64,000 nucleotides of DNA from Thermoplasmatota archaeon (GTDB lineage: Archaea; Thermoplasmatota; JAKEGO01), in the NCBI GenBank assembly GCA_028279595.1, contig JANQNK010000004.1, positions 128,001 through 192,000 on the forward strand, given 5' to 3'. Positions 1 to 17,920 of the stretch are shown piece after piece. The stretch's first letter is position 1. Every line of letters begins with the position of its first letter. The notes under the pieces were generated by a model that was not told the origin of the DNA, did not search any database, and saw only the letters and a list, made by a program, of their open reading frames with translations. The translations under genes and the position numbers were made by a program.

Positions 1-3000
1 GTACCCCAGTCTCCGCTGACTTCGGGGACGATATCCTCTTCGCGGAGATCGGAGGGGAGACCGGACCGGACATGATCGTCGCCGATGCGGAGGCAGGGAC
101 CGGAGGAGAGGTATACATCCTCCTGGACCCTGACGAGGGTAATTTGACAGTGTCGGACGCCGACATCACATTGACTGGTGCGGCCGGCAGCATGTTCGGG
201 TCCGGGGTCTCGTTCACCGACATGAACGACGACAACGTGACGGACCTGATAGTGGGAGCTCCGATGGCCGACAACGGGAACGGAACGGTCTATCTCTTCC
301 TAGGACCTATAGCCAACGGCTCCTACCAGAATGCGAATATTACTCTTGACGCGCCCGAGGACACGCTGGGATTCGGTGCATCGGTCCAGGCCTCCGAGAT
401 CAACGGGGATACGAGGCCCGACATCGCGATAGCGAGCATCTACCAGCCCGGTGGGAACGGTCTCGTGGGATCGTACTACGATGACATCGACCTGTCCGAA
501 CTGATGTACGTCCAGGTCGACGACGATATCGATTTCAACTGGGGACTTGGCGCGCCGACGAACCTTAGCGCTGACACCTTCTCGATACGCTGGACCGGTC
601 TCTTGTACTGCGAGGAGACCGGCGAGCACACCTTCTGGGTGGACGCCGACGATGCTATCCGCGTCTACATCGACGGCGACATGGTCATCGATGCGTGGGG
701 TGGAGCGCCGAATGCATCGGAAGGTGTGTACCTCCTAGAGGGATATCACGACATCAAGGTCGAGTACGCCGATGATACGCTCGACGCGTACGTGAACCTC
801 AATTGGACGACGGCATATTCTAGTGGTCCCGTCCCGACCGCGAACCTGGTCCCGTCCTTGTCCAGTCCGTTGTTCATAGTCAACGGAAAGACGAACCTCT
901 CGAACCTGGAGGTCTCGGACATCCTCGTCGGAGAGGTGATGGGTAGCACATTCGGCAGCGAGATGATCGATTCCGACGAGGGATTGGTGGTGGGCTCCTG
1001 GTCGACCGGCCACGTCTTCATCCATGACGCGGACACGGCCGGAGACACCGAGACCTACTATGCCTATCCACAGTACAAGGGATCAGGGGATGAGACTGGT
1101 GAACCCGTCAGTGATCTGTGGGGCGATGACAATAACTATTACGAGGTCGAGAGAGGGAACAGCGAGGACGATCTGGAAATAGATACGTTCTACATCTACC
1201 AGCTACCGGCAATAGCCCGTCAATACGGGGAGATAGCTGGCGTCAACCTTTTGGTAAGGTGGTCCACCGACCAGTACTACATCTGGCAGGGCAACGGGGA
1301 TATGAACTATGTCCAGTTCGCGATAGAGGGGGATGCATATGAGGACCTCGTTCAGCCGACAAGGACCACAACTGAGGCCACGATCACTGGCAACCTCTAC
1401 AACAAGGGAGTAGATACGTACGGTGAGATCGAGGACCTCAACATACATTTCAACAATGGAGATGTCGGAAGCAGCGCGGATTCGGTCTACTTCGAGTTCA
1501 TCCTGGTGGAGATCGAGGTCTCTCTACCCGTGATGGACGAGTATGTGGACGGACCGGCCTCCTTCGGTATGTCCCTCGCCTCGTATGGCGATGACCTGTA
1601 CGTAGGGGCGCCCTATGCTGGTCCGATGACCAACGATCACGAGCTCGTGGGGATGTCCGGCGGAGGAAGCGCGTACTCCTTCGACATGACATCGTTGCCC
1701 GATGCTGCGGCGGAGGCGGGGGGCATCCTCTTCGGGACGCCCGGGTCCGAGTTCGGAAGCTCGTTGGCCACCGCCGACGGCATGTTGGCCATCGGCGCAC
1801 CTGAAGCATTCCTAGCCGACGACACCGGGGCCGTGTTCCTCGCCGAGGACATGGACCTCTCCGGATCCGGCCTTTGCCCGTACGGATCGGGCAACGCGGG
1901 GACAGTGGTCGCGATGAACGGCACATTGCTCGCCGCGGGAAATCCGGAGACCGACACCATCCATCTCATAGACATCACCGACGCCCCGACCATGGAGGTC
2001 GACAGGTCCGACTCGGTCCATGTGCCGACATCCGAGCAGTACACCATTGACATCAGCTCGACGGGCGTTCTCGCCATCACATCATATACGATCCCTGCCT
2101 GGGACTCCGATTTCAACGGAACTGACTGGATCAGGATGAGCGCCGGGGACCTCGACATGGATGTCGATATCAACACGGCGCCCGGACACGATACACCGGT
2201 AAGCATAGTCGGCAGGAGCCTTGACGGCCTGACATGCGGGCTCGACGTCATCTGGTTCAGGACGATGGAGGACAGCTTCTCCGTCGACGACCTTCACATC
2301 GTACGGGCGGACGGCAAGGCCTTCGCCTCGCCAGAGGGCGGCGTGGCCGGCGAGGTCAGCACGGTGAGGCCGTTCGTAAGGTACAGTGGGCCTGGTACGA
2401 CCGCTACAGACGTGGAGATCTCCACGGGAGGTTCCTACCTGAACCGGACAGTGCCACTGCCGTCGGACCTCATGGTCCTGGGCGACAACCTAACGGTCTC
2501 GAGCTACGGGACGGAGGCCTGGAGGGCCACCGACCAGATGGGCAGCTCGTACACGACAATCTCATTGACCGAGAGCCACTACTCCTGGAGGGTGATCGTC
2601 AACGGTTCATACCTACTCCAGAGGAGCGGATCGGTCGGCCTAAGGTTCTACACGCCGGTCGCGCTCACCTTCGATCAGGTCTCCATCGCGAGGGCGAGCG
2701 GGGATGATAGGAACATCTTCGACGAGACCCTCACGGAGGTCTCCTTCGGCGGGATGCCGTACTACCGTGCGGCAGCCGGAGAGGTCTTCGTATCGGATTG
2801 GACCGATTTCTCGATCGATCCGGACGGCATCTACGCCGTCTCCTTCCACACCCAGACTAACAGCACCAACGAGTTGACGTACTTCTACGGGTCTGGCATC
2901 GGAGAGACCTATTACAGGACTGGCGATTACAGGAGCGATCCAGACTGGTCCGACAACGCACCTTCGTCCTCGGCGTTCTCTGCCTATCTAATATCGGTGC

Positions 3001-6000
3001 AGAGCGAGACGCTCCCATCGGTATCCGGGATCGTATCGATTCCCTGGTACTCGCCCGTTGGCTGGAACTCCATCGGATGGACAGCGACCACTCCGGGCGG
3101 CAGCTCGGTGAGGGGGAGCATCAGGACCGCGGACGATGTGGGCGGTATGCCCGCGAACTGGTCTGCCTGGAGGGGTCCGTCTGGAGAGGACCCGTACCTC
3201 GCACCGTCAGCGATGACTGAAACGTCCTCCTGGATCCAGTACAGGGCCGAACTCGTCACCTCGGACGGGATGGCCCCGATCCTTCACAGTTTCTATCTTG
3301 GGACCACACAGGGCGACGCGGTCCAGGACGAATGGACCACCATCTGGGATCCCACATGGGGCACCGGGGATATTACGGGGATCGAGATGCAGTACCGGCT
3401 GGACAGCCTGTGGACGGGCTCGGTCGGATATCACAACATAACGGTCGGCCTGGGCGGTGAGACCGGTACGTTCATGGTCGAGATGGAATCGAACGCTCCC
3501 AACGGGGTGGTCACCATCTCCGGACGTACGGAGGACATCCAGGCGTACGCGCTAACGGGGGCTGCAATATCACTATCCAACCTTCGGACAGGGAGCATGT
3601 TGAACACGACCTCCGACGGATCGGGCGATTATTCGCTCGACCTCTCGAGCCTGCCTGGCGGCTACATCGACGGGGAGGCATTCATCATAAATGCGACGCA
3701 CATGGGGTCCTTCGGTACGGAGGCCTTCACTATCTACTCGGAGGACGGGGACAGGACGATCGATATCGCCCTAGAGCTCGAGGGGCTCGAGATCTTCGTC
3801 GATCTGCAGGACACACCGTATGGACAGAGGTTCATCAGGATGAACCGGGAGTCGGACGGTGCGGAGACCGATACGCCGGTTGAGGGAGAGGACACGCTCC
3901 TGTCCGCGAGGATCGGTAACAGGGGGCAGCTCGACGCCAAGAACGTCACCCTCGGATTCTTCGACAACGGGACGATCATCGGAGCGGAGCAGAAATTGAA
4001 CATAACCTCCGGAGATGTCGTCGAGATCCAGCAGTGGTGGACGCCAACGCCTGGATGGACGAACCTTTCAGTGAAGGCCTGGGGGATGTGGAACACGGAA
4101 CACTACTTCTGGGCGGACCTCTGGGACTCACCCATCGACTGGGGAGGCGCGGTGGACTTCACGACCGAGGCATACAACACCCCCGACGATCTCAACACAT
4201 GGTGGATCGACGGGGCGGACCCGAACAGCTCCATGGATGGCTGGGATTGGCTGCCCTTCGCATATGGAAGCACGGATGAGGATTACACCTGGCTCGGTGA
4301 ACCGAGTGGGGAGGCGGACTATGTTGAAGCGGGACAGATCGAGATAAGGATAGGCCGCTACAGCGGCTGGGGGAACTCGGGCATGGACGGGGAATCGTCC
4401 GGCGCCTTCGGAACGCAGTTCTACATAGAGCCGGACGCTTTCGCGGAATGGACCGGTGGAAAGGCGATACTCAGGTTCGTCTGGGACTGGGACCAGTGGT
4501 CCGGCACGGAGGAAAGATGCTCCCTGCTGGGACGGATCAGGACCAGGAACGACACCCTTTGGCTGGGGTCAGATGTGAGCACAGCCTACTATCCAAATTC
4601 CTCGGCGGCCATCTACGGAAAGAACGAGGACGAGAACACCAACCAGGACTTCTGGGACCAGAATTTCGTCCAGGACGTAACGTCGATCTTCAACCAGTCG
4701 GGTCATTACTATCTCGACCTAGGCGCATGGGTCGATGACACGTCCCGCAAGGGTGAAGGGGCGAGCGCATCCTTCGATGATATCTCCCTCGAGTTCGTCA
4801 GGGAGGTCACGGACCAGTTCCCCGACAACGACGAGGGGTGGATGAACGTCACGGTACTTCCCAATCAACCTGTGACGCCGTTCAATGCCAGCGTCCAGTT
4901 CATAGACAATTACAATCTCACGGGCCTCAGGGTCAACTTCACCTCGTACACGACCTCCGGATCATGGTCGCTGGACGACAGGGCCAATGGCACGGGACAT
5001 TACGATATCGGAATACCGGCGATCAACTATACCGAGGCTGATATGCTAAATATCGTCGTCGACGATGTCCTGGATGGAGTGCGTTTCCTGGGTTCGTACC
5101 AGACCGTACTCTATTCCTACGAGAGCCCGGCCTCGATCGTGATCCCGCTGTTCAGCTACGGGTTCAGCATGACGCCAGTGAGCACACATGCAGTTCTCTC
5201 ACCCGGTGATTCATTCAATTACTCATTGATGGTCATGAGCGACTCGAACGTCGGTGTTGACATCTATCTGAACGTTACCGGACTTCCGGCAGGATGGGAC
5301 GTGGTCCTGTCCGGATCGAACGTCAACAAGTCTGGAGGTCAGTACACCGTGTGGGTACCAGCTTATGGCTCGGTCACGGTAACCGTATTCCTTGAGCTCG
5401 ACGAGGACCCGCTGTCGTCATTGCCTGGCAACTACTCATGGTCGGTGGACGGCGGGGCGTGGTTCGGAAAGGACTCGATCACCATGCTGTCGGACGTCAT
5501 TCCCGTATACACCTTCGAGATCTCCGATATCGACGTGGAGACCATCGTTCCTGGAGGGACCGTCTTCTACAACGTCACCGTGCTCAGCACCGGCAACGTC
5601 GACAACATCATCGACTTCAACCTCACCGCTCCAGACAACTGGACGGTGCATATCCCGAACACCGCCCTGCCATTGGCAGCGAGCACGAGCGAGAACATCG
5701 TGTTCTACATCACTGCTCCCGATTGGCCCGGAAAGAACATGACCCAGGGAACGGACTACAACCTGACTCTCGACGGGGCGAGCCGGCATTCCGCCGACGC
5801 AGACATGAAGGCGGTCGATCTGGAGATCGGCAGCATTCACGATATCAGACTCGAAGGGGATGACATGGAATGCGAGCCGGGCATCCCGGTGTTCTATCCG
5901 ATCAACATCACGAACCACGGCAATGTCAGGGAGACGGTGACCTTGATGCTCGAGTGGAATGCCACGATCGGGAATGTCTCTACGCCGACGCCTATCGTCC

Positions 6001-9000
6001 TGGACCCGGGCGAGTGGTACATACTGGACATCGTTTTCACACCGTCGCCCGACTACAACGTCTCTACCGCCGACAGGGTCCTCGAGATAAACGCCAGCTA
6101 CGGCAGTGCCCTGCTCAACGCGAGGTTCACCGTGGAGCGGGTATACGACCTTCACTTCATCGTACCGGACACCATAGATACCGTCATCGGACAGGAGACC
6201 GAGTTCGAGGTCACGATCGAGAACCGTGGGAACGGTGATGCCACATACAAGATCGGGGTTTCGAACGGGATCCCGAGCACACCCTTCATGGAGCTCGTGA
6301 CATGGGACCCGAGGACATTGGGTGTCAAGATGACGCCGGACACGGAGGGGTGGTCCAACGTCACGCTGTCGCTCATCCTCGACTCAGAGACCATCGGCCA
6401 GATCGCTGTTCCGATCAAGGCCAGCAGAGGATACATCGACTTCGTCATGGGTGATAGCGAGGTTGTCATCAACGACGTGGACGCCTATGACATCTCCCCG
6501 TCCACCATGGACATGGCCTACATCTCCGCAGGGAATGCCTACTATCTCCCGGCCAACGGCACAGCGGTCGATCTCGGTGCAACGAATGCGACCGACATCG
6601 CGATCACGAACCTCGGATCAGCCTTCATCGCGCTGGCGAAGCCTGACGCGGTGATGGTACACGAGGTCTCGGGGAACGCTCCCTACAACATCGTTGAGAC
6701 CTGGAACATGTCGGTCGGCGGTACCATGGTCGAGATGGACTCCAGCACCTACACGACGGACGGGAACGCGGTCTACCTCGTTTGGATAGCGCCTGGAGGT
6801 GTGAAGTTCCGTTCACTCAGCAACTGGCAGAGCAAGGACTGGAACACGGTTGCGAACATCTACTCGGGAACTGCGACCGCCATCGACCTGGTCGCGTCCG
6901 GTTCCCGGATAAATATTGCATGGGGCGCCTCGAACGGGGTGCACTACGAGCGGGTATCATATCTCGGTTCCGAGGACATCGCCCCCGTGAGGGTCGCCAA
7001 CGTCGCTCCTCCGACCTCGGTCGCCCTATCGAACCCGATGGACCTGCACCTCGCGTGGGCGTCCAACGGCGTGGTCTCCTATGCGACCTACAACGGGTCC
7101 TGGTCGTCGGCGACCAGGCTGCGCGAGGGTTTCGAGGTCGCCGGAGCCGTGGCGGGGGACATCACGTCGTTCGCTATATCCGAGGACTTCGTCTCCGTCG
7201 TACACCCGCCGCAGGGATTCTGGCAGGCATCCGAGAGGGGGGACCCATCGTCCCCGACCATCGTCTGGGACGACGGAATGTACGTCTATTACCTGGATGG
7301 TGACCTCCACGTCAACGAGATCGGGCTTCCGTTCCTGATGGACTGGGGCGAGGAAGCGGAGATCGATGTGACCCTGTACAACCGCGGATCCCGCAACATG
7401 GATGTTTCGCCCACCGCGTCGGTCCACGAGGATTGGACTGCGGACATCGGTTCGGACCCCGTCCCCAAGGGAGGAACGGGGATGATAACGCTCGAGGTGA
7501 AGGCCCCTTACACGATATCATCGGAGGACTCCACGGATGTGGTGATCTCGCTTGACGGGATCGAGATGGTGAGGATACCGGCGCGGGCGTTGGGCGGAGA
7601 GGTCCACGAGGTGTCCGTCGAGGGAGACCTTGCGGCTACGCCGGGTGAGACCCTAGAGACCACCCTGACCTTCACCAACACCGGGAATTCGCATGAGAAC
7701 ATCACGATCGAGCTCATCGTCCCCGAAGGCTGGGAGATGGTCCTCGACTCTGATTCGCTATCGATACCGGCCGGCGGGACGGGTGCCGTGGGAGTGACCG
7801 TAACAGCACCGATCGACACGATCGCACAGGACGACCTGTCCGTCAACCTCACGTTCGCCGGGACGACCACCGTCGTGATGGCGCCAGTGGCCGTCGCCCC
7901 GATGGCCCCACATATCGGGAGCGTCAACGTCACCACCGGTCTCTCGGGAGACATGATATGGATGAATGCGACGGTGTTCAGGGCGCTCTCGGTCGAATGG
8001 TTCCTGCCCAACGGCACGGAACTGTCCGGTACCGAGGTGGTGGGAGCGTTCGACATCCCTGGAACTGCCGTCGTACAGCTCGTCGCCACCAATGAGGCGG
8101 GTGTTGAGTCGACGTTCGTCAACGTCACCATCGGGAACAGACTGCCCACAGGCGTGGACTTCGCGACGGGCAAACTGAAGGCCGGAGAGAGCATCATGCT
8201 CGAGGCCAACGGTACCGACCCCGAGGGAACGCTCCTCACTTTCACCTGGACGATCGAGGGTGAGGAATACGTTGGAACCTCCGTCGATTACCGCTTCGAG
8301 GAAAAGGGAACCTACAAGGTTCTCTTGACAGCGGTGGACGAGCACGGTGGTGCCACGGAGGTCTCGCACAACGTAGTCGTCACCGGTGGTGAGGAGGACG
8401 GCGTTGCCGGGATGGACATGATCGACCTGATGCTGATCATCTCGCTGATACTCCTCATCCTGATCCTCCTGCTCCTCCTGGTGAAGAAACGCAAGGCGCC
8501 GGTCGCCGAGAAGGCCCTCAAGGACGAGAGCATGTTCGAGATGGTCCACCGCCTGTGGCCCCAGTACGTCGACACCGTTCGAGACCTCGATCCGAAGGTG
8601 GCCGACATACTGGAGCAGGCGAAGCTGTTGAACTACGACGAGACGACGAACGTGCTAACACTGGGTCTCGCAGAGGGTGAGGACTTCAAGAAGGCTGTGA
8701 TGCCCGAGGTACTCGAGGTGATGGAGCGCGGATTCCACGACCTCCACGGGACCAGGGTATTCCTGTTCATCGAGAGCGGGATGGGCGCGGCTCCGAAGGA
8801 GGAAAGCGGTCCGACGCTGACCCTCGTCAAGGACGAGCCACCTAAGAAGGGTGGCGCGGCAGAGCCCGGGGCAGTGAAGAAGGGCCCCCGGAAGAGGAAG
8901 GCCAAGAGACCCCAGGCGAAGAATGGACCGCAGCAGGAAGGGGGCGCAAAGGACGCACCGAAGAAGAAGGTCGCAAGGCCGAAGAAGAAGGGGCCGAAGG

Positions 9001-12000
9001 GTCCGTTCTGCCTTGTCCTGATGGTACTGATGATAGGGCTGTTGGGTGTTGCCTCCGGCGAGCAGCTCACGCTCGCCGACGTGGACCTTGACGGAGCGGA
9101 CGACGTTGCCGTAGGATTCCCCGATGATGACTCCATTGGTTACGCGACTGGACCCCTGTCACGGGGAGAAGTGGCACTGACCACCGTCGAGGGCCAGGCA
9201 GGCTCGGGATACGGTTACGCCCTCGCATCGACGAACGGGACACTGGCCGTCATGGCGCATTCCAATGCATCCACGGTCGTCTACCTCTACGATGCGTTCG
9301 GCACCTGGGACAGCTTCGATTCGAACATATCGACGATCTCGCCCTCCGGAGTGAACTCGCTCGCTGTCGGGGACTACGATGGCGATGACGAGGTCGACAT
9401 CGCGGTCGCTTCATCGGCAGGCACCGTTCGGGTGTACTTCGGCCCCGAGTACTCATCGACCATGACGATCGATGTTCCCGCGTCCGGGGACATCGCCCTG
9501 GTGCTCGAGGACATCGACGGCTCCGGCGAGGACGAGCTGGTGGTCGGAGTACCGTCCATCGGCATCGTCCTGATATTCGAAGGAGGGGTCGATTACCAGA
9601 CCCAGTTGATCGCGCCCGACCTGGAGGACATGGAGTCCGGCATCAACCTGACATGGGAGGACGACGGCCTCATGCTCGCGAGACTGGGCGAGATCGAGAA
9701 CGGAGACGGCTCTGACGGCATGGTTGGTTGGTGGACCACGGACAACAGGGACGGGAACGAGAACGGTTTGATCCGTCTCCTCGACGGAGACATTGGAAGC
9801 TGGAAGGTCAGCCCAGACAGCGGAGCACCGACCGTCGGTTTCGGCTCGAACCGGGACACAATGGTCCAGGACGGGGAGAACAAGGCATATTCCGGCACAC
9901 TTTGCAGTCCATCGTTCGAGATACCCGACAACGTGGAATACCTCCACCTGTGGTACCGTTACGTCCTGGCCAGCTTCGATAGATGGGAGGGCGTCTATGT
10001 CGATATCTACAACGATGTGAACAACAACAAGCTCCTCAGTGTACATCAGAGGAGGTTCGGTGACAACGGTAACTGGAGAACCTACGAGGAGTCGAAGATC
10101 ATCGAGGTGTCGAGCTTCCAGGGATACACTGTCTACTTCGGCGGAGAACTGGACGGCGACGACGGACGTGATTCCGCCCTCATAACCATGGACGACATCT
10201 ACTTCTCCGACGAAGAGGGCAACATAGCCCGCAAGGACACGGGACACTACGTTTCCTATCCCCAGACGGTGGGATTCAACATAACGTCGGTGGTTCCGAT
10301 ATGGGACGCTGACCTGAACGGCGAGGAGATAGAGATCAGGGCGAGGGCGTCATCGAGCGTTCCCTGGACCTCGATCGAACCGCTCGAGAACTCGGTATTG
10401 AACGAGCTGTCCGTCGCCGGGACCGCCTTCGAGTACAACATCACATTGAGGTCGGATAACATCGGCATCAGCCCGGTACTTAGGAGCCTGACCTTCGAGC
10501 TCATGTCCGCTCCGGGAGCGGTCATCAAGGGCAAGGCCAACACCGGCTTCGGGTCCACGCTGAAGGTGTCGGTGGACCATGACACGCTAGTCGTTGGTTC
10601 CCCGACCTACTTCACGAAGGGATCGGCGTTCGGTTACGACCTTCCCTCCATCGGGGACAGTCTCACGCTCGCAAACACGACGTTCACCGTGGAAACGAAC
10701 GAACTCGATGCCGGTCTTGGTACGGGAGTCGCCCTGGCTGACCTGACCGGGGACGGTATGGCAGAGGTCCTGGTCTCGGCGCCAATGGCGAGGTTTAAGG
10801 CCGACGACGGTGGAGCGGTATACGGGTTCTCGCAGGCATCCGGAGACCTTACGATCAAGGAGTCGGAGGTCCAGTATGCCGGCGACGGTGGACTCGGGAC
10901 AGCGATGGCATCGTGCTGGGACAGGATCGCCGTCCTCGAGGGCGAGACCGTGAGCATCATCGAGGGATGGCACGCCCTCCGTTTCATCACGACGGACGCG
11001 AACTCCTTCCCCGACAATTCGATCTCGATACCGATCTCCATAGAGAACCTGTTCGACGCCGAACAGATCGACCTCGGATTGATACTTCCAGGCAACTGGA
11101 CCGGCCATTTCGAGGACGGTGGCACGGTCACATCGGTTTCTGTAGGCGCTGGAACGACCAAGAACCTGACCCTGGTGGTCGATATCCCCGAGACGGCGTC
11201 GGACGACGACTTCGAGGTCTCACTTATCGGGATCGGTGCGGACGGGATCGCTTACAACGTCTCCACGCTCACTGTGGACGTGTTCATCCCGGACATCTAT
11301 CCGAACTATCTCTTCATGCTCAGGGGCGACGGATGGAACGCCACCGACAATTCACGTCACCTGATAGCGGGAGAGGTCGCCAACATAACGGTGGAGTTCT
11401 ACACGATCAGCGATTCGCCGCTTCCCGAGATAACGATCACTTTCTTCGAGGAGTACAATACAGGTTCGTCGTGGGACTATTCGGTCATCGACAACTTCAC
11501 GGTACAGCCGGTCCCGGGGGAGAGCACATGGCTCAGCACCGACTGGACACCCTTCACGGACGGCGAGTTCTACATCGGCGCGATGATCGACTCGCTCGAG
11601 ACCGTGCTTGAGACTGACGAGGACAATGAGATCAAGTACAAGAGGGACATACTCGACGACATTCCTGAAAGCGTTTACACCATCAGCGGAAAGGTGTTCG
11701 ACACCGACAACACGACAGTGAACGCATCGATAACCGTCTCCGGACCTAGGGGATACATGGACTCGTTCACCTCGAGCGATTCCGGAGATTACTCCACCGT
11801 GATCGACAACAGCAGCTATTTCGAGGGCGAGGTGTTCTGGATCAACGCGACCCTTTCCGGACCTCCCGGTTCTGCATCGGAGTCGATCGCACTCTACTCA
11901 GAGGATGTAGGTTCCGAGATCGATCTCGACCTCCACTTCGATGGGGTCGACGTCGCGCTGGAAGAATTCGACGACGCCACAGGGACGGTCGATATCTCGA

Positions 12001-15000
12001 TCCTGAGGTACGGTGACGGGATGGCCGATGACACTGTGGTGGCGGGACTCCCGGTCACCCTGGAGATCGAGGTAAAGAACAGGGGAACCGACGATGTGTC
12101 AGTGGACGCGTCCTTCTGGACGAACACGTCCATCGGTTCCGTGGTGAGGACGGTGGACGCGCTGTCCGCGGACAGGATTAATATCTCGTGGACCCCGGCC
12201 TCGGCGGGAACATACGACCTATACGTCCAGCTCAATGCGAGCGGTGACATATATTCCGCCAATGACATGGGTTCCAGACTGTCGGTGGTATGCATTCCGA
12301 GGACGCCTTCGATGGACATCTGGATCAACGGAACGGTATTTGACACGGAGGGAGACCCACTCTCCGGCGTGCAGGTGCCTGTCGAGAACCTTGGTTCGTC
12401 ATGGATGAACAGTTCGATAATCACGAACGGCACTGGCTGGTTCTCGACCCTGATCAACATGTCATCATATCTCGAGGGAGACAGGATCGACATCAACGTG
12501 TCGCACAGCGGGAACTGGGGGAACACGACGATCCACCTCTTCTCGTACGACGGCGACCACGACGTGACCCTCCTGCTGAGGAGGTACGGGGTCGGACTCA
12601 CGGGCGACGCTTCCGCGAAGGTAATGCCGTGGGACATGGCGATGTATCAGCTCAACCTCTCGAGCGGTGCGAACTTCAACGACACGTTCACCGTAAGGGC
12701 ATCCGGGGTCCCGTCCGGCTGGGACCACTACTTCCTCTACGGCAATGGTTCCATGGTGAGTCCGTTCTCTTGGGGCCTTGATCCCGATGGTTCGATCGAG
12801 CTTTACCTGGTGATGTGGACAGAGACCGATCCATGGCTGGTCCTTCCGGACACGTACGCTGTTACGGTGAGGGCTTTCATGGACTCTCATCCTACCACAT
12901 CGGTCGACCTCATGGTCTCGCTGGAGGTCCTTCCGACATACAACTTCACACTGACGGGCGTGAACACCAGCTGGTCGGTGGCGCCCAATGGAACGGTCAT
13001 GTTCGAGTATGACCTGACGAACTGGGCGAACGGCAACGTCTCCGTCCTCGTGACGGCGTTCTCTGACGAGCCCGATGTCGGGCTGGTCTACCCGAGCTCG
13101 ATCTCGCTCGGTTACGGCGATACGGAGACCCTTTTCATAGAGGCCACTGCCCCACCTCTGTCGTCGGATATCGAGGCGGGATCCGAGATAGAGATCACCC
13201 TCAAGGTGGCAGCGCTCAACGATTCCAAGATGGACAGATGGGCGACGCCGGTCATGACCGTCGAGGGCATCGTCGCCCTTGAGTGGTCCGGGACCATGGC
13301 CGAGGAGGCGGTCCCGGGCGATGAGGCGGTCTACGAACTGGTCCTTACGAACGTAGGCAATGCCGACTTCTCAGGGAACGTCTCGATCGGGGGTGCCGAT
13401 TTCTATACATGGGTGTACCCGGACGGTGTGGACCTCGGACCTGGAGATTCGGAGACGTTCACGATATTCGCCGAGGCTGACTTCGAGGATATAGGCGGCG
13501 ACAGCCTGCCGGCGGGAACGATGCTCGACTTCAACGTCACGGTCGGCAACGTTACCGCGGACCTTACGCTCACGTCGCTATCGAAGCACTCGATCACGAT
13601 ATCGAGTGACGCGACCGACACCTGGGCGCACCACACGGACGCCCAGACGTTCGAGGTCGTCATCAGGAACAAGGGCAACGTTCCGGAGGACGTCATCATG
13701 TACATGGCCGGAGAGAACACCTCATGGGTGTCCCTCGCGATGGACGACTTCACGCTCGGAATCAACGAGGTGCTCAAGTTCAACCTGACGATCGACCCCG
13801 ATGGTCCGGGGGTTTGCGACATTGCGATCTACGGATCGAGCGATGACGCGGTGTCGAACTCTCTCAATGTGTTCGTGACCTTCGACGATCGGACCGATCA
13901 GGTGCTGGTATATTCACCAGCCTTCATGATAACCGACGATGCGGAGGAGTTCGACTCCTGCGGCGACGCCGTGGTATGGAGGAGCTCGGGCGGGATCCAC
14001 GTCGATGACGGCACCGGGGCGATATCCCTCGGGGATGGATCTCTGCCGACCGTCGGAACCTACGGCGACCTCGTTGGAGTATCGTGGTTCGAGGATGGAT
14101 CTGTGATGTTCGCAACGTCGGCCGGGGATTACGCGACCCAGGAGGTCTCCGACCTGACGCCCGTCCGTTTGGAGGTATCGCCAGGCCCGGTAAGGGCCGT
14201 GGCCATCGACACGGGTTCGGCTATCAAGGTGCTGACGTTCAGCGGCGGGAACTGGACCCAGGCCCACTATCCGCACGGCGACTTCGCCCTGATACCCCAT
14301 GGTGATGAGCTCTATCTACTCCACATCAATTCAACGAACGCCTCCATCAGAACACTCCCGGACGGCGATGTGGTCGAGGAGCTAGACCTCGACGAGGTCC
14401 ACCAGGTCCTGGTCGATGACGCCATCGGGATCCTGGGGGAATACGAGGGCGCGGGCGTTCTCATCTGGGGCGAGCCCGGGGACTGGACAACGACCAAGGG
14501 GCCGGTCTGGGGAGAGGCCCTGATCTCGACCGGACAGTGTCCGATCGCAGTCGGATACACTACTGGGGAGATGGTCCTCAAGAGCGACTGCGGACGCTTC
14601 ACCATGCCGATGAGGCCAACCTGGCCCCTGGCGATGATGGACGGCGGTTATCTGCCCCCGGTACCGACATCAGACCTTGGCGGCGGCGATGCGGTCTATT
14701 ACATCTCCGGTGACTCGCTCTACATGATGCCGCTCGACATGATCGTACGACCCGACGAGACCGGTGAGACCTTCGAGGTGTTCGTGTATGGCAACGCAGA
14801 GGGGTTGACCCCCATCATCGACGGCATGGCGAGCATCGTCTCCTCGGATGTCAACACTACGACTGGTATCGTCTCGGTGACGATCGTATCGGACCCGGTC
14901 GAGGCGGGTGAATCATATCCGCTCTCCATCTCGCTCATGGATGGCAGCGGATCCACCAATGGGCTCGGGTTCATAATGATCCCCAGGAGCTACGTCCAGA

Positions 15001-16583
15001 TAGACGTCCTGTCGGTCGAAGGGGACGTCATGCCTGGTGACACTTCATCCGTGGAGTTCGAGGTCGTCAACAACGGGACCGGGACGGAGAGCATGCTGAT
15101 CAAGTTCACACTACCGGACGGATGGACCGCCGACCATGACGTGTCCATCAGCCTGGATGCCGGAGAGACGGACACCTTCACGGTCGACCTCACACTACTC
15201 ACCGAGGAGGACGGTTCGAACATCGTGCTCTATCTCAACGGGTCCGAGGACAGGAGTTTCGACTTCACCCTCGGGACCCTGACACCGATGCCGTCGGCCG
15301 TCATCCTGTCACTCGACCAGGCGGTCTCGTTCAGGAACGTCAACTTCATCGCGGAGGAGGGGTACGGCGAGAACTGGACCTGGACGTTCGGCGACGGCAG
15401 CGTCGTGGAGGGCATGGAGATAAGTCACGCCTTCGGAAGACCTGGCGAGTACATGGTCACACTGACGGTCACGAACTCCGTCGGAGTGGACCGGGCCTAC
15501 AAGAACGTCACGATTACCAACCTCGTTCCCGAGGTGAGGATAGGGCCGGTCTCGGATGCCGAGTCAGGCTCGGTGGTCCAGATAACGGCGGCGGGAACCG
15601 TGGACAGAGACGGGACCATCGTCTCGTACACCTGGACGTTCAGCGACGGCGGTTCGGCCTCCGGAGCGGTGGTCAGCCACAAGTTCTCGACGACGGGGAT
15701 CAATGTGATCACCCTCAACGTCACCGACGAGCTCGGCGGCACGAACTGGACCACCTACAGTTTCAATGTGACATCCAAGGACGATGGTTCGGCGCTCGGA
15801 GACCTGGCAACGAAGATCGGTCTCGTCGTCGGGATCCTCATAATACTGATACTGATAATACTCGTTCTGATCGGGAAGATCGGACTGAAGAGGAAGGCCG
15901 CACCGGTGAAGCAGGAGCCCGTAGAGAAGAAGCCGCCTGCGAAGAAGCCCCGTGCGGGCGAGGGTCCACCGAAGAAGAAGGCGTCCCGTGGACCGCCCGT
16001 TGCCGGAGCTCCGGTCAAGCGGAAGGTCAGGAAGCCGGTTCCCGAGAAGGGGACGCCCCAGGATGAGGAGGCCTTCGCCGAGGTCCCGCCACCGGAAGAG
16101 GCCCCTCCGGCGGATGAAGTGCCCGAGACACCTCCGGAGGACGAGAAGCCATCCGCCTTCGTTCCAATGGGAAAGAAGGAGAAACCGGTCCTTCCGACAG
16201 GGCCAGCCGAGGAGGAGACCCCGGCCCCGGTGGAAGAAAGGGCGAGCGCGTTCACCACGAAGGACGCCCGGAAGAAACCCGTTCTCCCGACGGCGGTGGA
16301 TGAGCCGCCAGCACCTGAGGAGGCTCCGACACCGCCTCCCGCGGAGGAGCCCCCAGCGTGGGAGCCGCCCACGCCAGCTCCTGAGCCACCTGTGATGGAG
16401 CCGGAACCTGCTCCGGTCGCACCGGCACCGATCGTGGAGGAGCCACCAGTCGAAGAGACCACCCCGCCCATGGACGAACCTCCTGAGGAGGAGAAGGTGG
16501 ACGAGGGCGAGATCTCACAGCAGCTCGACGACCTCGAAGCCCTTATGAAGAAGCTCGACGGTTACACCGAGGAAGAGGAGTGA
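1..16583 (+). CDS. Giant cell-surface glycoprotein/adhesin (>5503 aa, 5'-truncated by the window): FG-GAP repeats, PA14, CARDB/NEW3-like Ig folds, PKD domains, three hydrophobic segments, Pro/Glu-rich tail
   Basis: The frame is open from the window start, with no stop upstream of ATG 72. Motifs seen: FG-GAP (DMNDDNVTDLIVGAP, DLTGDGMAEVLVSAP); PA14 (GLVGSYY...IDFNWG...FSIRWTG); PKD (WTFGDG); many N-x-S/T sequons. TM segments lie at ~8421-8483, ~9003-9059 and ~15815-15875. Confidence 0.9.
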   Translation, partial: TPVSADFGDDILFAEIGGETGPDMIVADAEAGTGGEVYILLDPDEGNLTVSDADITLTGAAGSMFGSGVSFTDMNDDNVTDLIVGAPMADNGNGTVYLFLGPIANGSYQNANITLDAPEDTLGFGASVQASEINGDTRPDIAIASIYQPGGNGLVGSYYDDIDLSELMYVQVDDDIDFNWGLGAPTNLSADTFSIRWTGLLYCEETGEHTFWVDADDAIRVYIDGDMVIDAWGGAPNASEGVYLLEGYHDIKVEYADDTLDAYVNLNWTTAYSSGPVPTANLVPSLSSPLFIVNGKTNLSNLEVSDILVGEVMGSTFGSEMIDSDEGLVVGSWSTGHVFIHDADTAGDTETYYAYPQYKGSGDETGEPVSDLWGDDNNYYEVERGNSEDDLEIDTFYIYQLPAIARQYGEIAGVNLLVRWSTDQYYIWQGNGDMNYVQFAIEGDAYEDLVQPTRTTTEATITGNLYNKGVDTYGEIEDLNIHFNNGDVGSSADSVYFEFILVEIEVSLPVMDEYVDGPASFGMSLASYGDDLYVGAPYAGPMTNDHELVGMSGGGSAYSFDMTSLPDAAAEAGGILFGTPGSEFGSSLATADGMLAIGAPEAFLADDTGAVFLAEDMDLSGSGLCPYGSGNAGTVVAMNGTLLAAGNPETDTIHLIDITDAPTMEVDRSDSVHVPTSEQYTIDISSTGVLAITSYTIPAWDSDFNGTDWIRMSAGDLDMDVDINTAPGHDTPVSIVGRSLDGLTCGLDVIWFRTMEDSFSVDDLHIVRADGKAFASPEGGVAGEVSTVRPFVRYSGPGTTATDVEISTGGSYLNRTVPLPSDLMVLGDNLTVSSYGTEAWRATDQMGSSYTTISLTESHYSWRVIVNGSYLLQRSGSVGLRFYTPVALTFDQVSIARASGDDRNIFDETLTEVSFGGMPYYRAAAGEVFVSDWTDFSIDPDGIYAVSFHTQTNSTNELTYFYGSGIGETYYRTGDYRSDPDWSDNAPSSSAFSAYLISVQSETLPSVSGIVSIPWYSPVGWNSIGWTATTPGGSSVRGSIRTADDVGGMPANWSAWRGPSGEDPYLAPSAMTETSSWIQYRAELVTSDGMAPILHSFYLGTTQGDAVQDEWTTIWDPTWGTGDITGIEMQYRLDSLWTGSVGYHNITVGLGGETGTFMVEMESNAPNGVVTISGRTEDIQAYALTGAAISLSNLRTGSMLNTTSDGSGDYSLDLSSLPGGYIDGEAFIINATHMGSFGTEAFTIYSEDGDRTIDIALELEGLEIFVDLQDTPYGQRFIRMNRESDGAETDTPVEGEDTLLSARIGNRGQLDAKNVTLGFFDNGTIIGAEQKLNITSGDVVEIQQWWTPTPGWTNLSVKAWGMWNTEHYFWADLWDSPIDWGGAVDFTTEAYNTPDDLNTWWIDGADPNSSMDGWDWLPFAYGSTDEDYTWLGEPSGEADYVEAGQIEIRIGRYSGWGNSGMDGESSGAFGTQFYIEPDAFAEWTGGKAILRFVWDWDQWSGTEERCSLLGRIRTRNDTLWLGSDVSTAYYPNSSAAIYGKNEDENTNQDFWDQNFVQDVTSIFNQSGHYYLDLGAWVDDTSRKGEGASASFDDISLEFVREVTDQFPDNDEGWMNVTVLPNQPVTPFNASVQFIDNYNLTGLRVNFTSYTTSGSWSLDDRANGTGHYDIGIPAINYTEADMLNIVVDDVLDGVRFLGSYQTVLYSYESPASIVIPLFSYGFSMTPVSTHAVLSPGDSFNYSLMVMSDSNVGVDIYLNVTGLPAGWDVVLSGSNVNKSGGQYTVWVPAYGSVTVTVFLELDEDPLSSLPGNYSWSVDGGAWFGKDSITMLSDVIPVYTFEISDIDVETIVPGGTVFYNVTVLSTGNVDNIIDFNLTAPDNWTVHIPNTALPLAASTSENIVFYITAPDWPGKNMTQGTDYNLTLDGASRHSADADMKAVDLEIGSIHDIRLEGDDMECEPGIPVFYPINITNHGNVRETVTLMLEWNATIGNVSTPTPIVLDPGEWYILDIVFTPSPDYNVSTADRVLEINASYGSALLNARFTVERVYDLHFIVPDTIDTVIGQETEFEVTIENRGNGDATYKIGVSNGIPSTPFMELVTWDPRTLGVKMTPDTEGWSNVTLSLILDSETIGQIAVPIKASRGYIDFVMGDSEVVINDVDAYDISPSTMDMAYISAGNAYYLPANGTAVDLGATNATDIAITNLGSAFIALAKPDAVMVHEVSGNAPYNIVETWNMSVGGTMVEMDSSTYTTDGNAVYLVWIAPGGVKFRSLSNWQSKDWNTVANIYSGTATAIDLVASGSRINIAWGASNGVHYERVSYLGSEDIAPVRVANVAPPTSVALSNPMDLHLAWASNGVVSYATYNGSWSSATRLREGFEVAGAVAGDITSFAISEDFVSVVHPPQGFWQASERGDPSSPTIVWDDGMYVYYLDGDLHVNEIGLPFLMDWGEEAEIDVTLYNRGSRNMDVSPTASVHEDWTADIGSDPVPKGGTGMITLEVKAPYTISSEDSTDVVISLDGIEMVRIPARALGGEVHEVSVEGDLAATPGETLETTLTFTNTGNSHENITIELIVPEGWEMVLDSDSLSIPAGGTGAVGVTVTAPIDTIAQDDLSVNLTFAGTTTVVMAPVAVAPMAPHIGSVNVTTGLSGDMIWMNATVFRALSVEWFLPNGTELSGTEVVGAFDIPGTAVVQLVATNEAGVESTFVNVTIGNRLPTGVDFATGKLKAGESIMLEANGTDPEGTLLTFTWTIEGEEYVGTSVDYRFEEKGTYKVLLTAVDEHGGATEVSHNVVVTGGEEDGVAGMDMIDLMLIISLILLILILLLLLVKKRKAPVAEKALKDESMFEMVHRLWPQYVDTVRDLDPKVADILEQAKLLNYDETTNVLTLGLAEGEDFKKAVMPEVLEVMERGFHDLHGTRVFLFIESGMGAAPKEESGPTLTLVKDEPPKKGGAAEPGAVKKGPRKRKAKRPQAKNGPQQEGGAKDAPKKKVARPKKKGPKGPFCLVLMVLMIGLLGVASGEQLTLADVDLDGADDVAVGFPDDDSIGYATGPLSRGEVALTTVEGQAGSGYGYALASTNGTLAVMAHSNASTVVYLYDAFGTWDSFDSNISTISPSGVNSLAVGDYDGDDEVDIAVASSAGTVRVYFGPEYSSTMTIDVPASGDIALVLEDIDGSGEDELVVGVPSIGIVLIFEGGVDYQTQLIAPDLEDMESGINLTWEDDGLMLARLGEIENGDGSDGMVGWWTTDNRDGNENGLIRLLDGDIGSWKVSPDSGAPTVGFGSNRDTMVQDGENKAYSGTLCSPSFEIPDNVEYLHLWYRYVLASFDRWEGVYVDIYNDVNNNKLLSVHQRRFGDNGNWRTYEESKIIEVSSFQGYTVYFGGELDGDDGRDSALITMDDIYFSDEEGNIARKDTGHYVSYPQTVGFNITSVVPIWDADLNGEEIEIRARASSSVPWTSIEPLENSVLNELSVAGTAFEYNITLRSDNIGISPVLRSLTFELMSAPGAVIKGKANTGFGSTLKVSVDHDTLVVGSPTYFTKGSAFGYDLPSIGDSLTLANTTFTVETNELDAGLGTGVALADLTGDGMAEVLVSAPMARFKADDGGAVYGFSQASGDLTIKESEVQYAGDGGLGTAMASCWDRIAVLEGETVSIIEGWHALRFITTDANSFPDNSISIPISIENLFDAEQIDLGLILPGNWTGHFEDGGTVTSVSVGAGTTKNLTLVVDIPETASDDDFEVSLIGIGADGIAYNVSTLTVDVFIPDIYPNYLFMLRGDGWNATDNSRHLIAGEVANITVEFYTISDSPLPEITITFFEEYNTGSSWDYSVIDNFTVQPVPGESTWLSTDWTPFTDGEFYIGAMIDSLETVLETDEDNEIKYKRDILDDIPESVYTISGKVFDTDNTTVNASITVSGPRGYMDSFTSSDSGDYSTVIDNSSYFEGEVFWINATLSGPPGSASESIALYSEDVGSEIDLDLHFDGVDVALEEFDDATGTVDISILRYGDGMADDTVVAGLPVTLEIEVKNRGTDDVSVDASFWTNTSIGSVVRTVDALSADRINISWTPASAGTYDLYVQLNASGDIYSANDMGSRLSVVCIPRTPSMDIWINGTVFDTEGDPLSGVQVPVENLGSSWMNSSIITNGTGWFSTLINMSSYLEGDRIDINVSHSGNWGNTTIHLFSYDGDHDVTLLLRRYGVGLTGDASAKVMPWDMAMYQLNLSSGANFNDTFTVRASGVPSGWDHYFLYGNGSMVSPFSWGLDPDGSIELYLVMWTETDPWLVLPDTYAVTVRAFMDSHPTTSVDLMVSLEVLPTYNFTLTGVNTSWSVAPNGTVMFEYDLTNWANGNVSVLVTAFSDEPDVGLVYPSSISLGYGDTETLFIEATAPPLSSDIEAGSEIEITLKVAALNDSKMDRWATPVMTVEGIVALEWSGTMAEEAVPGDEAVYELVLTNVGNADFSGNVSIGGADFYTWVYPDGVDLGPGDSETFTIFAEADFEDIGGDSLPAGTMLDFNVTVGNVTADLTLTSLSKHSITISSDATDTWAHHTDAQTFEVVIRNKGNVPEDVIMYMAGENTSWVSLAMDDFTLGINEVLKFNLTIDPDGPGVCDIAIYGSSDDAVSNSLNVFVTFDDRTDQVLVYSPAFMITDDAEEFDSCGDAVVWRSSGGIHVDDGTGAISLGDGSLPTVGTYGDLVGVSWFEDGSVMFATSAGDYATQEVSDLTPVRLEVSPGPVRAVAIDTGSAIKVLTFSGGNWTQAHYPHGDFALIPHGDELYLLHINSTNASIRTLPDGDVVEELDLDEVHQVLVDDAIGILGEYEGAGVLIWGEPGDWTTTKGPVWGEALISTGQCPIAVGYTTGEMVLKSDCGRFTMPMRPTWPLAMMDGGYLPPVPTSDLGGGDAVYYISGDSLYMMPLDMIVRPDETGETFEVFVYGNAEGLTPIIDGMASIVSSDVNTTTGIVSVTIVSDPVEAGESYPLSISLMDGSGSTNGLGFIMIPRSYVQIDVLSVEGDVMPGDTSSVEFEVVNNGTGTESMLIKFTLPDGWTADHDVSISLDAGETDTFTVDLTLLTEEDGSNIVLYLNGSEDRSFDFTLGTLTPMPSAVILSLDQAVSFRNVNFIAEEGYGENWTWTFGDGSVVEGMEISHAFGRPGEYMVTLTVTNSVGVDRAYKNVTITNLVPEVRIGPVSDAESGSVVQITAAGTVDRDGTIVSYTWTFSDGGSASGAVVSHKFSTTGINVITLNVTDELGGTNWTTYSFNVTSKDDGSALGDLATKIGLVVGILIILILIILVLIGKIGLKRKAAPVKQEPVEKKPPAKKPRAGEGPPKKKASRGPPVAGAPVKRKVRKPVPEKGTPQDEEAFAEVPPPEEAPPADEVPETPPEDEKPSAFVPMGKKEKPVLPTGPAEEETPAPVEERASAFTTKDARKKPVLPTAVDEPPAPEEAPTPPPAEEPPAWEPPTPAPEPPVMEPEPAPVAPAPIVEEPPVEETTPPMDEPPEEEKVDEGEISQQLDDLEALMKKLDGYTEEEE

Positions 16584-17920
16584 ACTTGAGGCCGGAAACC
16601 GCCTTCGCGGGCAGGCTGCTCATGGACGGAGAGTTGGTCAGCGGAGCGGTCGAGGTCACCGACGGGCGGATCACGGACATCGTGAAGACCTCCGACGCCG
16701 AGGACGTCCTCGACTTCGGGGACGCGCTCGTCCTACCGGGCGGCGTCGACATGCACGTCCATTTCAGGGACCCGGGTTACACACACAAGGAGGATTTCCT
16801 TACAGGGAGTTCGGCAGCCGTCTTTGGCGGAACTACAACTGTGGTTGACATGCCGAACACCATACCGTTCATCGCGGACAGGACGACCTTCGTCGAGAAG
16901 GCGGGAGCGATGGCCGACTCCTGGGTCGACTTCGGGCTCGCGTCCGCGTTGGCAGCGGGAAGGGACCCGGTGGCGATGGCGGACCTGGCGGTATGCTACA
17001 AGCTCTTCATGGCCTCCACGACAGGTGTCGAGGGCGGCGACTACGAGGAATCCTTGCACAGGGCGGTGGGCGTCGCGAAGCCCATTGTGGTGCACGCTGA
17101 AGACCCTGGACAGTTCAGGGCTTCCCCCGGGGTCGACCTGGAGGACCATTCGCGTGCGCGGCCTTTCATCGCCGAGGTCGAGGGGATACGGCGGATCTAC
17201 TCGCTGGCTTCCCATCAGATACCGGCTCCGAGCGTGCATCCCGCCCAGGGAGAGAACCATCCCAACTTCTGGATCCACATCGCGCATCTCACGTCCGCGG
17301 AGGGAGCCGACGTCGTGAGAGGGTTGAGACCGGCGGGTTTCACCGCCGAGGTCACGCCCCACCATCTGTTCCTCGATTCGTCCATGGAGCTCGGGACTTT
17401 GGGAAAGGTCAACCCCCCTCTGAGGACGGTCAACGACCGATCCGCCCTCTGGAGGGCTCTCGGTGATGGAACTATCGATGCGGTCGCATCCGATCACGCG
17501 CCACATCTCCCCGAGGAGAAGGACACGGATTTCGCCGATGCCCCGGCGGGTATCCCCGGGGTGGAGACATTGTATCCTCTGATGCTCCATTCCGTCAAAA
17601 GGGACATGCTCCCATTGAACCGTGTCGTCGATGCCGTCGCCACCAGACCGGCAGAGATCCTCGGGATCCCGAAGGGAAAGGTCGAGGTCGGTTACGATGC
17701 GGACCTCGCGATCTTCGATTCCAGCAACGTCACCGAGATCAAGGGGGAGGATCTCCATTCAAGGTGCGGATGGACGCCGTTCGATGGCATGGAGGCGATA
17801 TTCCCGGTCGCGACCGTGGTCTGCGGCAGGATGCACCAACGCGACGGAGCACTGTTCGGGGATCCGGAGGGCAAGATGCTGATACAGCCGCAGCATAGCC
17901 GGACCATGAACGGAGGATAG
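16580..17920 (+). CDS. pyrC: Dihydroorotase (amidohydrolase superfamily)
   Basis: Motifs DMHVHFRDPG, GGTTTVVDMPNT, EVTPHHL, KVNPPLR and SDHAPH. The GTG start overlaps the upstream stop (GTGA). Confidence 0.85.
   Translation: MNLRPETAFAGRLLMDGELVSGAVEVTDGRITDIVKTSDAEDVLDFGDALVLPGGVDMHVHFRDPGYTHKEDFLTGSSAAVFGGTTTVVDMPNTIPFIADRTTFVEKAGAMADSWVDFGLASALAAGRDPVAMADLAVCYKLFMASTTGVEGGDYEESLHRAVGVAKPIVVHAEDPGQFRASPGVDLEDHSRARPFIAEVEGIRRIYSLASHQIPAPSVHPAQGENHPNFWIHIAHLTSAEGADVVRGLRPAGFTAEVTPHHLFLDSSMELGTLGKVNPPLRTVNDRSALWRALGDGTIDAVASDHAPHLPEEKDTDFADAPAGIPGVETLYPLMLHSVKRDMLPLNRVVDAVATRPAEILGIPKGKVEVGYDADLAIFDSSNVTEIKGEDLHSRCGWTPFDGMEAIFPVATVVCGRMHQRDGALFGDPEGKMLIQPQHSRTMNGG

Follow-up and report, generated by a model that had tools for sequence, protein, structure and literature searches.

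Retention of an internal signal after gene fusion, with cutting there by signal peptidase, is an already known principle. In the cytochrome b/c1 precursor FbcH of Bradyrhizobium japonicum, reportedly described by Thony-Meyer, James and Hennecke in PNAS in 1991, two genes are said to have become one open reading frame (ORF), in which the signal of the second protein was kept internally and is used for cleavage, giving two membrane proteins in a 1:1 ratio; this cleavage was reportedly shown experimentally. We know of no signal-peptidase-processed cellular polyprotein in Archaea, and a search of the literature on internal signal-peptidase cleavage in Archaea found no case. Here, we scrutinized a 64,000-nt stretch of a Thermoplasmatota archaeon genome (contig JANQNK010000004.1, G000:C1:128001-192000; hereafter the window), which begins inside a giant ORF encoding two very large, paralogous surface proteins in series with a predicted signal peptide between them. 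We propose, at a probability of roughly 0.45, that a Sec11-type signal peptidase of the archaeon cleaves the 595-kDa precursor some 3,000 residues from its N-terminus, at the internal signal, giving two giant paralogous glycoproteins in a 1:1 ratio.

Several described systems share part of this arrangement. FbcH differs in being bacterial, in its unrelated parts, which are subunits of a respiratory complex, and in its LepB-type peptidase, and cleavage is experimental there and proposed here. Astrotactins 1 and 2 of vertebrates, adhesion-type membrane proteins that a Sec11-type signal peptidase of the endoplasmic reticulum (ER) cuts just after the second transmembrane segment (TM2), have the same succession of signal, outward N-terminal domain, first transmembrane segment (TM1), loop, TM2, and large outward C-terminal domain (bioRxiv 10.1101/493858). 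Unlike the giant protein, they are eukaryotic and unrelated in sequence, their N-terminal ectodomain is small, their parts are not paralogues, no gene-fusion origin is known for them, and their fragments are disulfide-linked. MXAN_5598 of Myxococcus xanthus is a large adhesin with an internal C-terminal sorting element and a second exported protein in frame, which the authors presume to result from fusion of two genes (PMC11980579); it differs in its junction, with a MYXO-CTERM tag and myxosortase, in its second part, an OmpA-type barrel that is not a paralogue, and in its diderm bacterial host. Viral glycoprotein polyproteins (flavivirus, bunyavirus) alternate stop-transfer and internal signal segments, by which a single chain acquires several outward domains, and are cut after the internal signals by host Sec11-type enzymes (PMC7926653, PMC8277137). 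These are viral, small, and unrelated, whereas the giant gene is archaeal and chromosomal and stems from tandem paralogues. The ordinary giant surface proteins of type I that this archaeon encodes consist of one unit of signal, FG-GAP/CARDB/PKD-type ectodomain (~1,800 to 2,900 aa or more), anchor, and charged tail, in contrast to the giant ORF with its two units in series and its loop module. New at this locus are the occurrence in an archaeon, the union of two giant paralogues instead of unlike partners, a loop module resembling DnaA domain I, and a sister lineage with overlapping genes.

The genome holding the window (G000) is a metagenome-assembled genome (MAG), 86% complete and in 21 contigs. 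It was compared with G001, from another genus of the same family, and G002, from another family of the same class; these three species are the only representatives of the class in the collection, two carrying the fused gene and one the split genes. An earlier note on this DNA had placed the start of the ORF at position 1, where the window edge truncates it. The stop-free frame runs from upstream of the window through position 16,583, comprising 5,547 codons, and the true start is an ATG 60 nt outside the window that has a GGTGA ribosome-binding site and AT-rich sequence ahead of it. The N-terminal signal peptide combines a Lys/His n-region, 17 apolar residues, and V-S-A, followed by DFGDD. A hydropathy map placed three more apolar segments after it, at 8427 to 8483, 9006 to 9050, and 15816 to 15875, and sequence analysis confirmed a predicted layout of two units, each with signal peptide, ectodomain, membrane anchor, and cytoplasmic tail. 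The features, in window coordinates, are:

1 to 16,583, plus strand: giant ORF, starting at window position -60 (G000:C1:127940; L001:1440); 5,547 aa, 595 kDa, pI 4.05
1 to 18, plus strand: last six codons of the N-terminal signal peptide (residues 1 to 26), with a predicted cut after V-S-A
19 to 8426, plus strand: ectodomain A, with an FG-GAP propeller carrying a PA14 insert, then CarboxypepD_reg, CARDB, NEW3, and PKD
8427 to 8483, plus strand: TM1, 19 residues, all apolar; a predicted stop-transfer anchor followed by KKRK
8484 to 8957, plus strand: cytoplasmic loop, with a globular domain at 8529 to 8780 and then a Lys/Pro/Gly-rich linker
8958 to 9005, plus strand: n-region of the internal signal, eight Lys/Arg per 16 residues
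9006 to 9050, plus strand: h-region of the internal signal, 15 apolar residues
9051 to 9059, plus strand: c-region A-S-G of the internal signal, with a predicted signal peptidase I cut at 9059/9060, before EQLTLADV
9060 to 15815, plus strand: ectodomain B, with an FG-GAP propeller carrying an unnamed insert, then CARDB, CarboxypepD_reg, NEW3, and two PKD
15816 to 15875, plus strand: third transmembrane segment (TM3), a 20-residue anchor followed by a basic flank
15876 to 16583, plus strand: cytoplasmic tail of unit B, Pro/Glu/Lys-rich, with a terminal helix motif at 16524 to 16559

Hydropathy and sequence upheld the architecture read earlier, in which TM1, a cytoplasmic domain, a basic linker, and an internal signal peptide link the two halves, and the letters quoted for the internal segment proved identical on re-reading. 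Pfam matches above the gathering score comprised FG-GAP (40 to 46 bits), PA14 (68 to 70), NEW3 (36 to 40), CARDB (32 to 36, half 2), and PKD (43 to 105). By these domains, the giant protein is an FG-GAP/PA14/CARDB/PKD archaeal adhesin-type surface protein, with a putative role in adhesion.

To compare the halves, the part before TM1 (half 1) was set against the part after the internal segment (half 2, whose residue 1 is residue 3041 of the full protein). BLASTP returned four ordered, colinear high-scoring segment pairs (HSPs) with 24 to 29% identity and E values from 6e-4 to 5e-19, totaling about 1,000 residues:

Half 1 residues 576 to 809, half 2 residues 521 to 776
Half 1 residues 1187 to 1480, half 2 residues 869 to 1156
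Half 1 residues 1683 to 2098, half 2 residues 1123 to 1540
Half 1 residues 2503 to 2827, half 2 residues 1942 to 2249

These HSPs bear out the earlier reading of a common domain order and recognizable common sequence, and every motif pair quoted for it falls inside one of them. The order of Pfam families also matches, running FG-GAP, CarboxypepD_reg/CARDB, NEW3/NPCBM_assoc, and PKD in both halves, with PA14 in half 1 only. Two PKD domains had been assigned to each half; this holds for half 2, whereas only one copy in half 1 scores with Pfam and a degenerate copy aligns with the first PKD of half 2. Among G000 frames of at least 500 aa, the best match of half 1 was half 2 (210 bits over 1,035 residues, the next match reaching at most 52 bits), and the broadest match of half 2 was half 1. 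Since the halves are each other's top broad partners genome-wide, their likeness is specific and goes beyond commonly shared domains. Across the 40 longest G000 frames (up to 13,752 aa), the giant ORF alone has two signal-anchor units in series, most others having one.

At the position of the PA14 insert of unit A, the propeller of unit B carries an insert of ~250 residues with no Pfam match (window 9700 to 10500, approximately residues 3260 to 3520). This insert is kept in G001 and in gene B of G002 and may be a different ligand-binding cassette.

The frame is equally uninterrupted in G001, where the orthologue MCI0496986.1 (named 'PKD domain-containing protein [Thermoplasmata archaeon]' at NCBI) encodes 5,541 aa from an ATG start and is 45% identical over junction residues 5 to 499, with no stop (500-residue query, 40 relatives). 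The loci are syntenic, with a zinc-ribbon protein encoded upstream and a 61%-identical amidohydrolase downstream, the start of the latter lying at or adjoining the stop of the giant gene in G001. In G000, GC content at third codon positions (GC3) in the frame of the giant ORF was 0.78 across the linker, and the other two forward frames have stops within it. The in-frame fusion is genuine and is inherited in both genera of the family. A stop or indel missed in the assembly or sequencing of a MAG would be an artefact of almost negligible probability: the fusion is known here from assemblies, that of G000 being incomplete and fragmented as given above, rather than from reads, but the assembly of G001 is independent and keeps the same open frame at this level of identity, with no start codon plus n-region before the h-region, and the linker of G000 has coding-like GC3 in this frame and stops in the other two. 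An uninterrupted frame in two separately assembled genera makes a repeated assembly error very unlikely. The earlier note had regarded a stop or frameshift in the linker, or relatives that always have two genes together with independent initiation of the second half, as fatal to its reading; the junction is open in the independent orthologue, and one relative is fused (G001) and one split (G002). A word-indexed protein search over the junction found, at near lengths, only the protein itself and its G001 orthologue, and none at shorter lengths. Scans of genome contigs for further relatives found none, and a scan of metagenome contigs gave matches at the level of PKD only.

The split state is found on contig C63 of G002, where the TGA of gene A overlaps the ATG of gene B (ATGA) and the ribosome-binding site GGAGGTGA lies 6 nt upstream of the start of B. 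The signal peptide of B consists of a Lys/Arg n-region, 15 apolar residues, and T-S-A, followed by Gly-Asp. Gene A has lost its 5' end at the contig edge and encodes at least 1,630 aa, at the end of which are PKD, an anchor, a loop-type cytoplasmic domain, and a basic/acidic tail. It is colinear with half 1 of G001 (E 7e-66 and 5e-22) and matches half 2 weakly, whereas the full length of B aligns with half 2 (residues 38 to 645 against 8 to 596, E 3e-64) and B matches half 1 in single FG-GAP repeats only. In an alignment, the internal segments of the fused genes fall in register with three N-terminal signals, those of G002 B and of both half-1 starts, and the predicted cut in each aligned signal lies 5 to 9 residues ahead of the Asp-rich Ca-loop that comes first in the FG-GAP propeller. 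Because G002 still has separate A and B genes, B with an N-terminal signal, the internal segment of the fused genes is, by these alignments, the retained signal peptide of gene B. By the same comparisons, the duplication that gave A and B predates the class, and the unfused state is represented by the two tandem genes with coupled translation. Upstream of the stop of G002 A by ~45 residues is a basic motif similar to that found immediately ahead of the h-region in the fused genes; this low-complexity sequence suggests a deletion that would have removed the end of A and the first ten or so codons of B.

A third, solitary type of paralogue is also found in G002 (contig C163; L013:13653-15845, minus strand). 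It comprises PKD, anchor, and loop domain, then a charged tail of 130 to 170 residues and a stop, and the next gene there encodes a methyltransferase, with no B-type gene at this site. A fragment from a JGI metagenome (P0008) groups with this solitary paralogue and not with the paired gene A, and is thus uninformative on the fused versus split state. Its stop was inferred from a 3,023-nt contig versus a 1,038-nt partial gene, and no relevant longer relatives of P0008 were found.

Composition of the protein points to export of both halves. Ectodomain A has 59 sequons (N-x-S/T) in G000 against 23 ± 4.4 in shuffled sequence (48 against 15 in G001), and ectodomain B has 50 against 17.9 ± 3.8 (33 against 12 in G001), an enrichment of 2.5- to 3-fold in both ectodomains of both genera; the loop and the tail have none in either genus. 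Lys and Arg together account for 3.5% of residues in ectodomain A of G000, 3.6% in ectodomain B, and 20% in the loop, and Asp and Glu for ~15% in the ectodomains. Rich in sequons and low in Lys and Arg, both ectodomains resemble exported, glycosylated surface domains of archaea, and the basic, sequon-free loop resembles a cytoplasmic one. Judged by composition, the order should be signal, outside, TM1, inside, signal, outside, TM3, inside, both ectodomains facing outward.

The internal signal begins at residue 3007 of 5,547 and is hence not N-terminal like an ordinary Sec class I signal. In its n-region, eight of the 16 residues preceding the core are Lys/Arg in G000, and RRKVK stands seven residues before the core in G001. 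The h-region has 15 residues in G000 and 13 in G001, compared with 15 in the free signal of G002 B. By inspection, the c-regions of both genera conform to the von Heijne rule, reading G(-5) V A(-3) S G(-1), then E, in G000 and P(-5) C A(-3) T S(-1), then E, in G001, and comparable c-regions occur in other surface proteins of the window (e.g., V-E-G, T-N-A, A-S-A). These signal-peptide traits have been retained in both genera although the adjoining linker has diverged beyond alignment. Hydropathy over 19 residues was 2.28 for the internal segment, near the median of 2.34 for N-terminal signals of G000; the giant protein's own anchors, TM1 and TM3, scored 3.66 and 3.72, at the 96th to 97th percentile of G000 C-terminal anchors and above every N-terminal segment. 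A class III pilin-like signal was rejected by inspection, as G000 would need a cut before Pro-Phe and G001 has GGGT there, leaving no common motif.

Half B might instead be made, also or only, from an internal start codon, so that the locus would in effect hold two overlapping genes. We consider this improbable. In G001, AGGAGG stands 3 nt before an in-frame GTG (L012:8365-8376, minus strand) from which a Met-Lys n-region and full h- and c-regions would follow, and G000 has in-frame ATG codons at 9021 and 9030. The G001 arrangement is not conserved, however: the matching codon of G000 is GTC, and the in-frame ATG 9021, ATG 9030, and TTG 9042 of G000 lie inside the h-region without a ribosome-binding site, a start at 9021 or 9030 leaving 9 to 12 residues of h-region and no n-region. 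Independent initiation of half B (e.g., at ATG 9021), in combination with relatives that always have two genes, had been named earlier as a finding that would count against a polyprotein, and G000 has no start codon with a ribosome-binding site or with a TATA-like element before the internal signal. The 3-nt spacing in G001 compares with 7 and 9 nt (counted from the position of GGAGG) at the two sure starts of the family, and AGG AGG there reads as plain Arg-Arg within a basic stretch. The loops of G000 and G001 contain no AT-rich 8-mer of the kind expected of an archaeal promoter, and ribosomes translating A would meet no obstacle to continuing into B.

Cleavage at the internal signal is a sequence-compatible proposal, to which we give even odds. 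The products would be ~325 kDa (A) and ~268 kDa (B), which keeps the earlier expectation of two proteins and slightly corrects the earlier size range of ~270 to 300 kDa. The uncut, three-pass chain that the earlier note offered as the alternative is nearly as likely and a serious competitor. The internal signal would then be a permanent second span (N-in/C-out), and a single 593-kDa protein would display two tethered ectodomains. The distance from charge to charge is 20 residues in G000 and 24 in G001, enough to cross the membrane, and a permanent tether would by itself explain why the fusion was retained. Against a permanent span, the h-core has become neither longer nor more hydrophobic since the fusion (15 and 13 residues versus 15 in the split orthologue), the breaker at -5 and the small residues at -3 and -1 persist in both genera despite divergence of the linker, and the real anchors of the protein look very different in hydropathy.

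Several points weigh against cleavage by a Sec11-type enzyme, or against the history proposed for the gene. About a third of G000 C-terminal anchors are as weakly hydrophobic as the internal segment (~29% are no more hydrophobic), which could accordingly be a stable TM2, and the distributions of signal and anchor hydropathy in G000 overlap too strongly to separate the classes. The small -3 and -1 residues are kept in two fused sequences only, which is statistically not compelling. Long n-regions make poorer substrates for Sec11-type enzymes (PMC8277137), and in corin, positively charged residues at the cytoplasmic interface gave protection from signal peptidase (PMC11756421); the internal segment has both a long n-region and interface positive charges, features that favor the uncut chain. 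The candidate peptidase described below scores under its NCBIfam cut-off (32 versus 52 bits). Finally, the case for fusion over fission as the direction of change leans on three species together with the argument that a signal peptide originates at an N-terminus.

Searches of the lineage for signal peptidase with PF00717 and PF10502 gave no match, and neither did TIGR02228 at the default threshold. At a relaxed threshold, TIGR02228 matched one 297-aa protein of G000 (E 7.8e-8) that has Ser, His-Arg, and GDNN boxes, weak matches to SEC11A, and counterparts in G001 and G002. To our knowledge, archaea are without the Spc1 subunit. Yeast signal peptidase without Spc1 cuts internal signal-anchors more readily (PMC8277137).

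The candidate peptidase is encoded on contig C9 of G000 (L015:1012-1905, minus strand) and has an insert between its conserved boxes and a C-terminal membrane segment. This divergent Sec11-like protein is the only signal peptidase I candidate of the lineage.

In the mechanism we propose, which ends in cleavage, two tandem, coupled genes for giant type I surface glycoproteins fused with loss of the stop of A and the start of B, while the signal of B was kept, and the basic tail of A would now act as the n-region of the internal signal. The N-terminal signal peptide would start Sec export of ectodomain A, which TM1 would halt, and the basic loop with its DnaA-domain-I-like module would remain cytoplasmic. 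The internal signal would then re-enter the translocon in N-in/C-out orientation and start export of ectodomain B, with TM3 anchoring B. A Sec11-type peptidase would cut after A-S-G (A-T-S in G001), so that mature B would begin EQLTLADVDLDG. Of the two products, made 1:1 at the same site, A (~325 kDa) would end in a hairpin of TM1, loop, and h-region, the last serving as a second membrane segment, and B (~268 kDa) would be a type I protein.

The globular domain of the loop (8529 to 8780) comprises 85 to 90 residues. Every A-type protein of the class has it in conserved form, as does P0008; in G000, the giant protein is its sole carrier. It has no Pfam match. A HMMER profile built from four loop domains and searched against 1.84 billion representatives matched three DnaX (tau-type) proteins (E 2e-4 to 9e-4) and, besides these, only the three-species class and P0008. 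Six multi-stretch profile matches to the loop domain look like low-complexity noise and were set aside. The AlphaFold2 (AF2) model, with a predicted local distance difference test (pLDDT) score of 76, has the order helix-helix-strand-strand-helix-helix-strand. Its top Foldseek matches were the C-terminal domain of tau (5fku_E, 2aya), DnaA domain I (4tps_D, target TM-score 0.78, root-mean-square deviation 2.3), and DciA (7ykm), with E values of only ~0.02. As modeled, the domain has a KH-like fold resembling those of DnaA domain I, the C-terminal domain of Pol III tau, and DciA. Because these three are protein-binding modules, unit A probably holds a cytoplasmic partner. Modules resembling DnaA domain I are familiar elsewhere from replication proteins of bacteria, and the presence of one in unit A hints at a tether to something intracellular.

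If the cleavage reading is true, one precursor gives two giant paralogous surface glycoproteins in a fixed 1:1 ratio, with a living two-gene relative for comparison. A family with separate, overlapping genes and another with a single chain form a natural before-and-after pair in which the effects of fusion are directly comparable. The internal segment would also serve as a test substrate for whether a single-subunit archaeal Sec11-type enzyme can tell an internal signal from an anchor, so far a question for yeast and mammals. For annotation, signal-anchor-signal-anchor order in a very long archaeal ORF is no ground for splitting it or discarding it as an error, and a single locus may be the source of two surface proteins. 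With three species of the class in the collection, the finding has limited biological reach at present.

Within its last 25 residues, the giant protein carries a predicted amphipathic helix motif, L-D-D-L-E-A-L-M-K-K-L-D, with acidic flanks (16524 to 16559). The motif is near-identical in G001 and absent from other long G000 frames, and it may be a docking site for a cytoplasmic factor. Directly downstream, the GTG of an amidohydrolase gene (dihydroorotase/allantoinase-like, window 16580 to 17920) overlaps the TGA of the giant gene (GTGA), and this housekeeping-type gene and a 16.6-kb gene for a surface protein appear to be coupled in translation. Elsewhere in the 2.3-Mb genome are stop-free frames of 13,752, 8,224, 5,584, 5,525, and 4,683 aa and approximately thirty others above 1,800 aa (e.g., C18:+210351, C1:-197677, C11:+91829). 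Most giant frames of G000 have an N-terminal signal and a C-terminal anchor, and a very large share of its coding capacity is thus spent on giant surface proteins.

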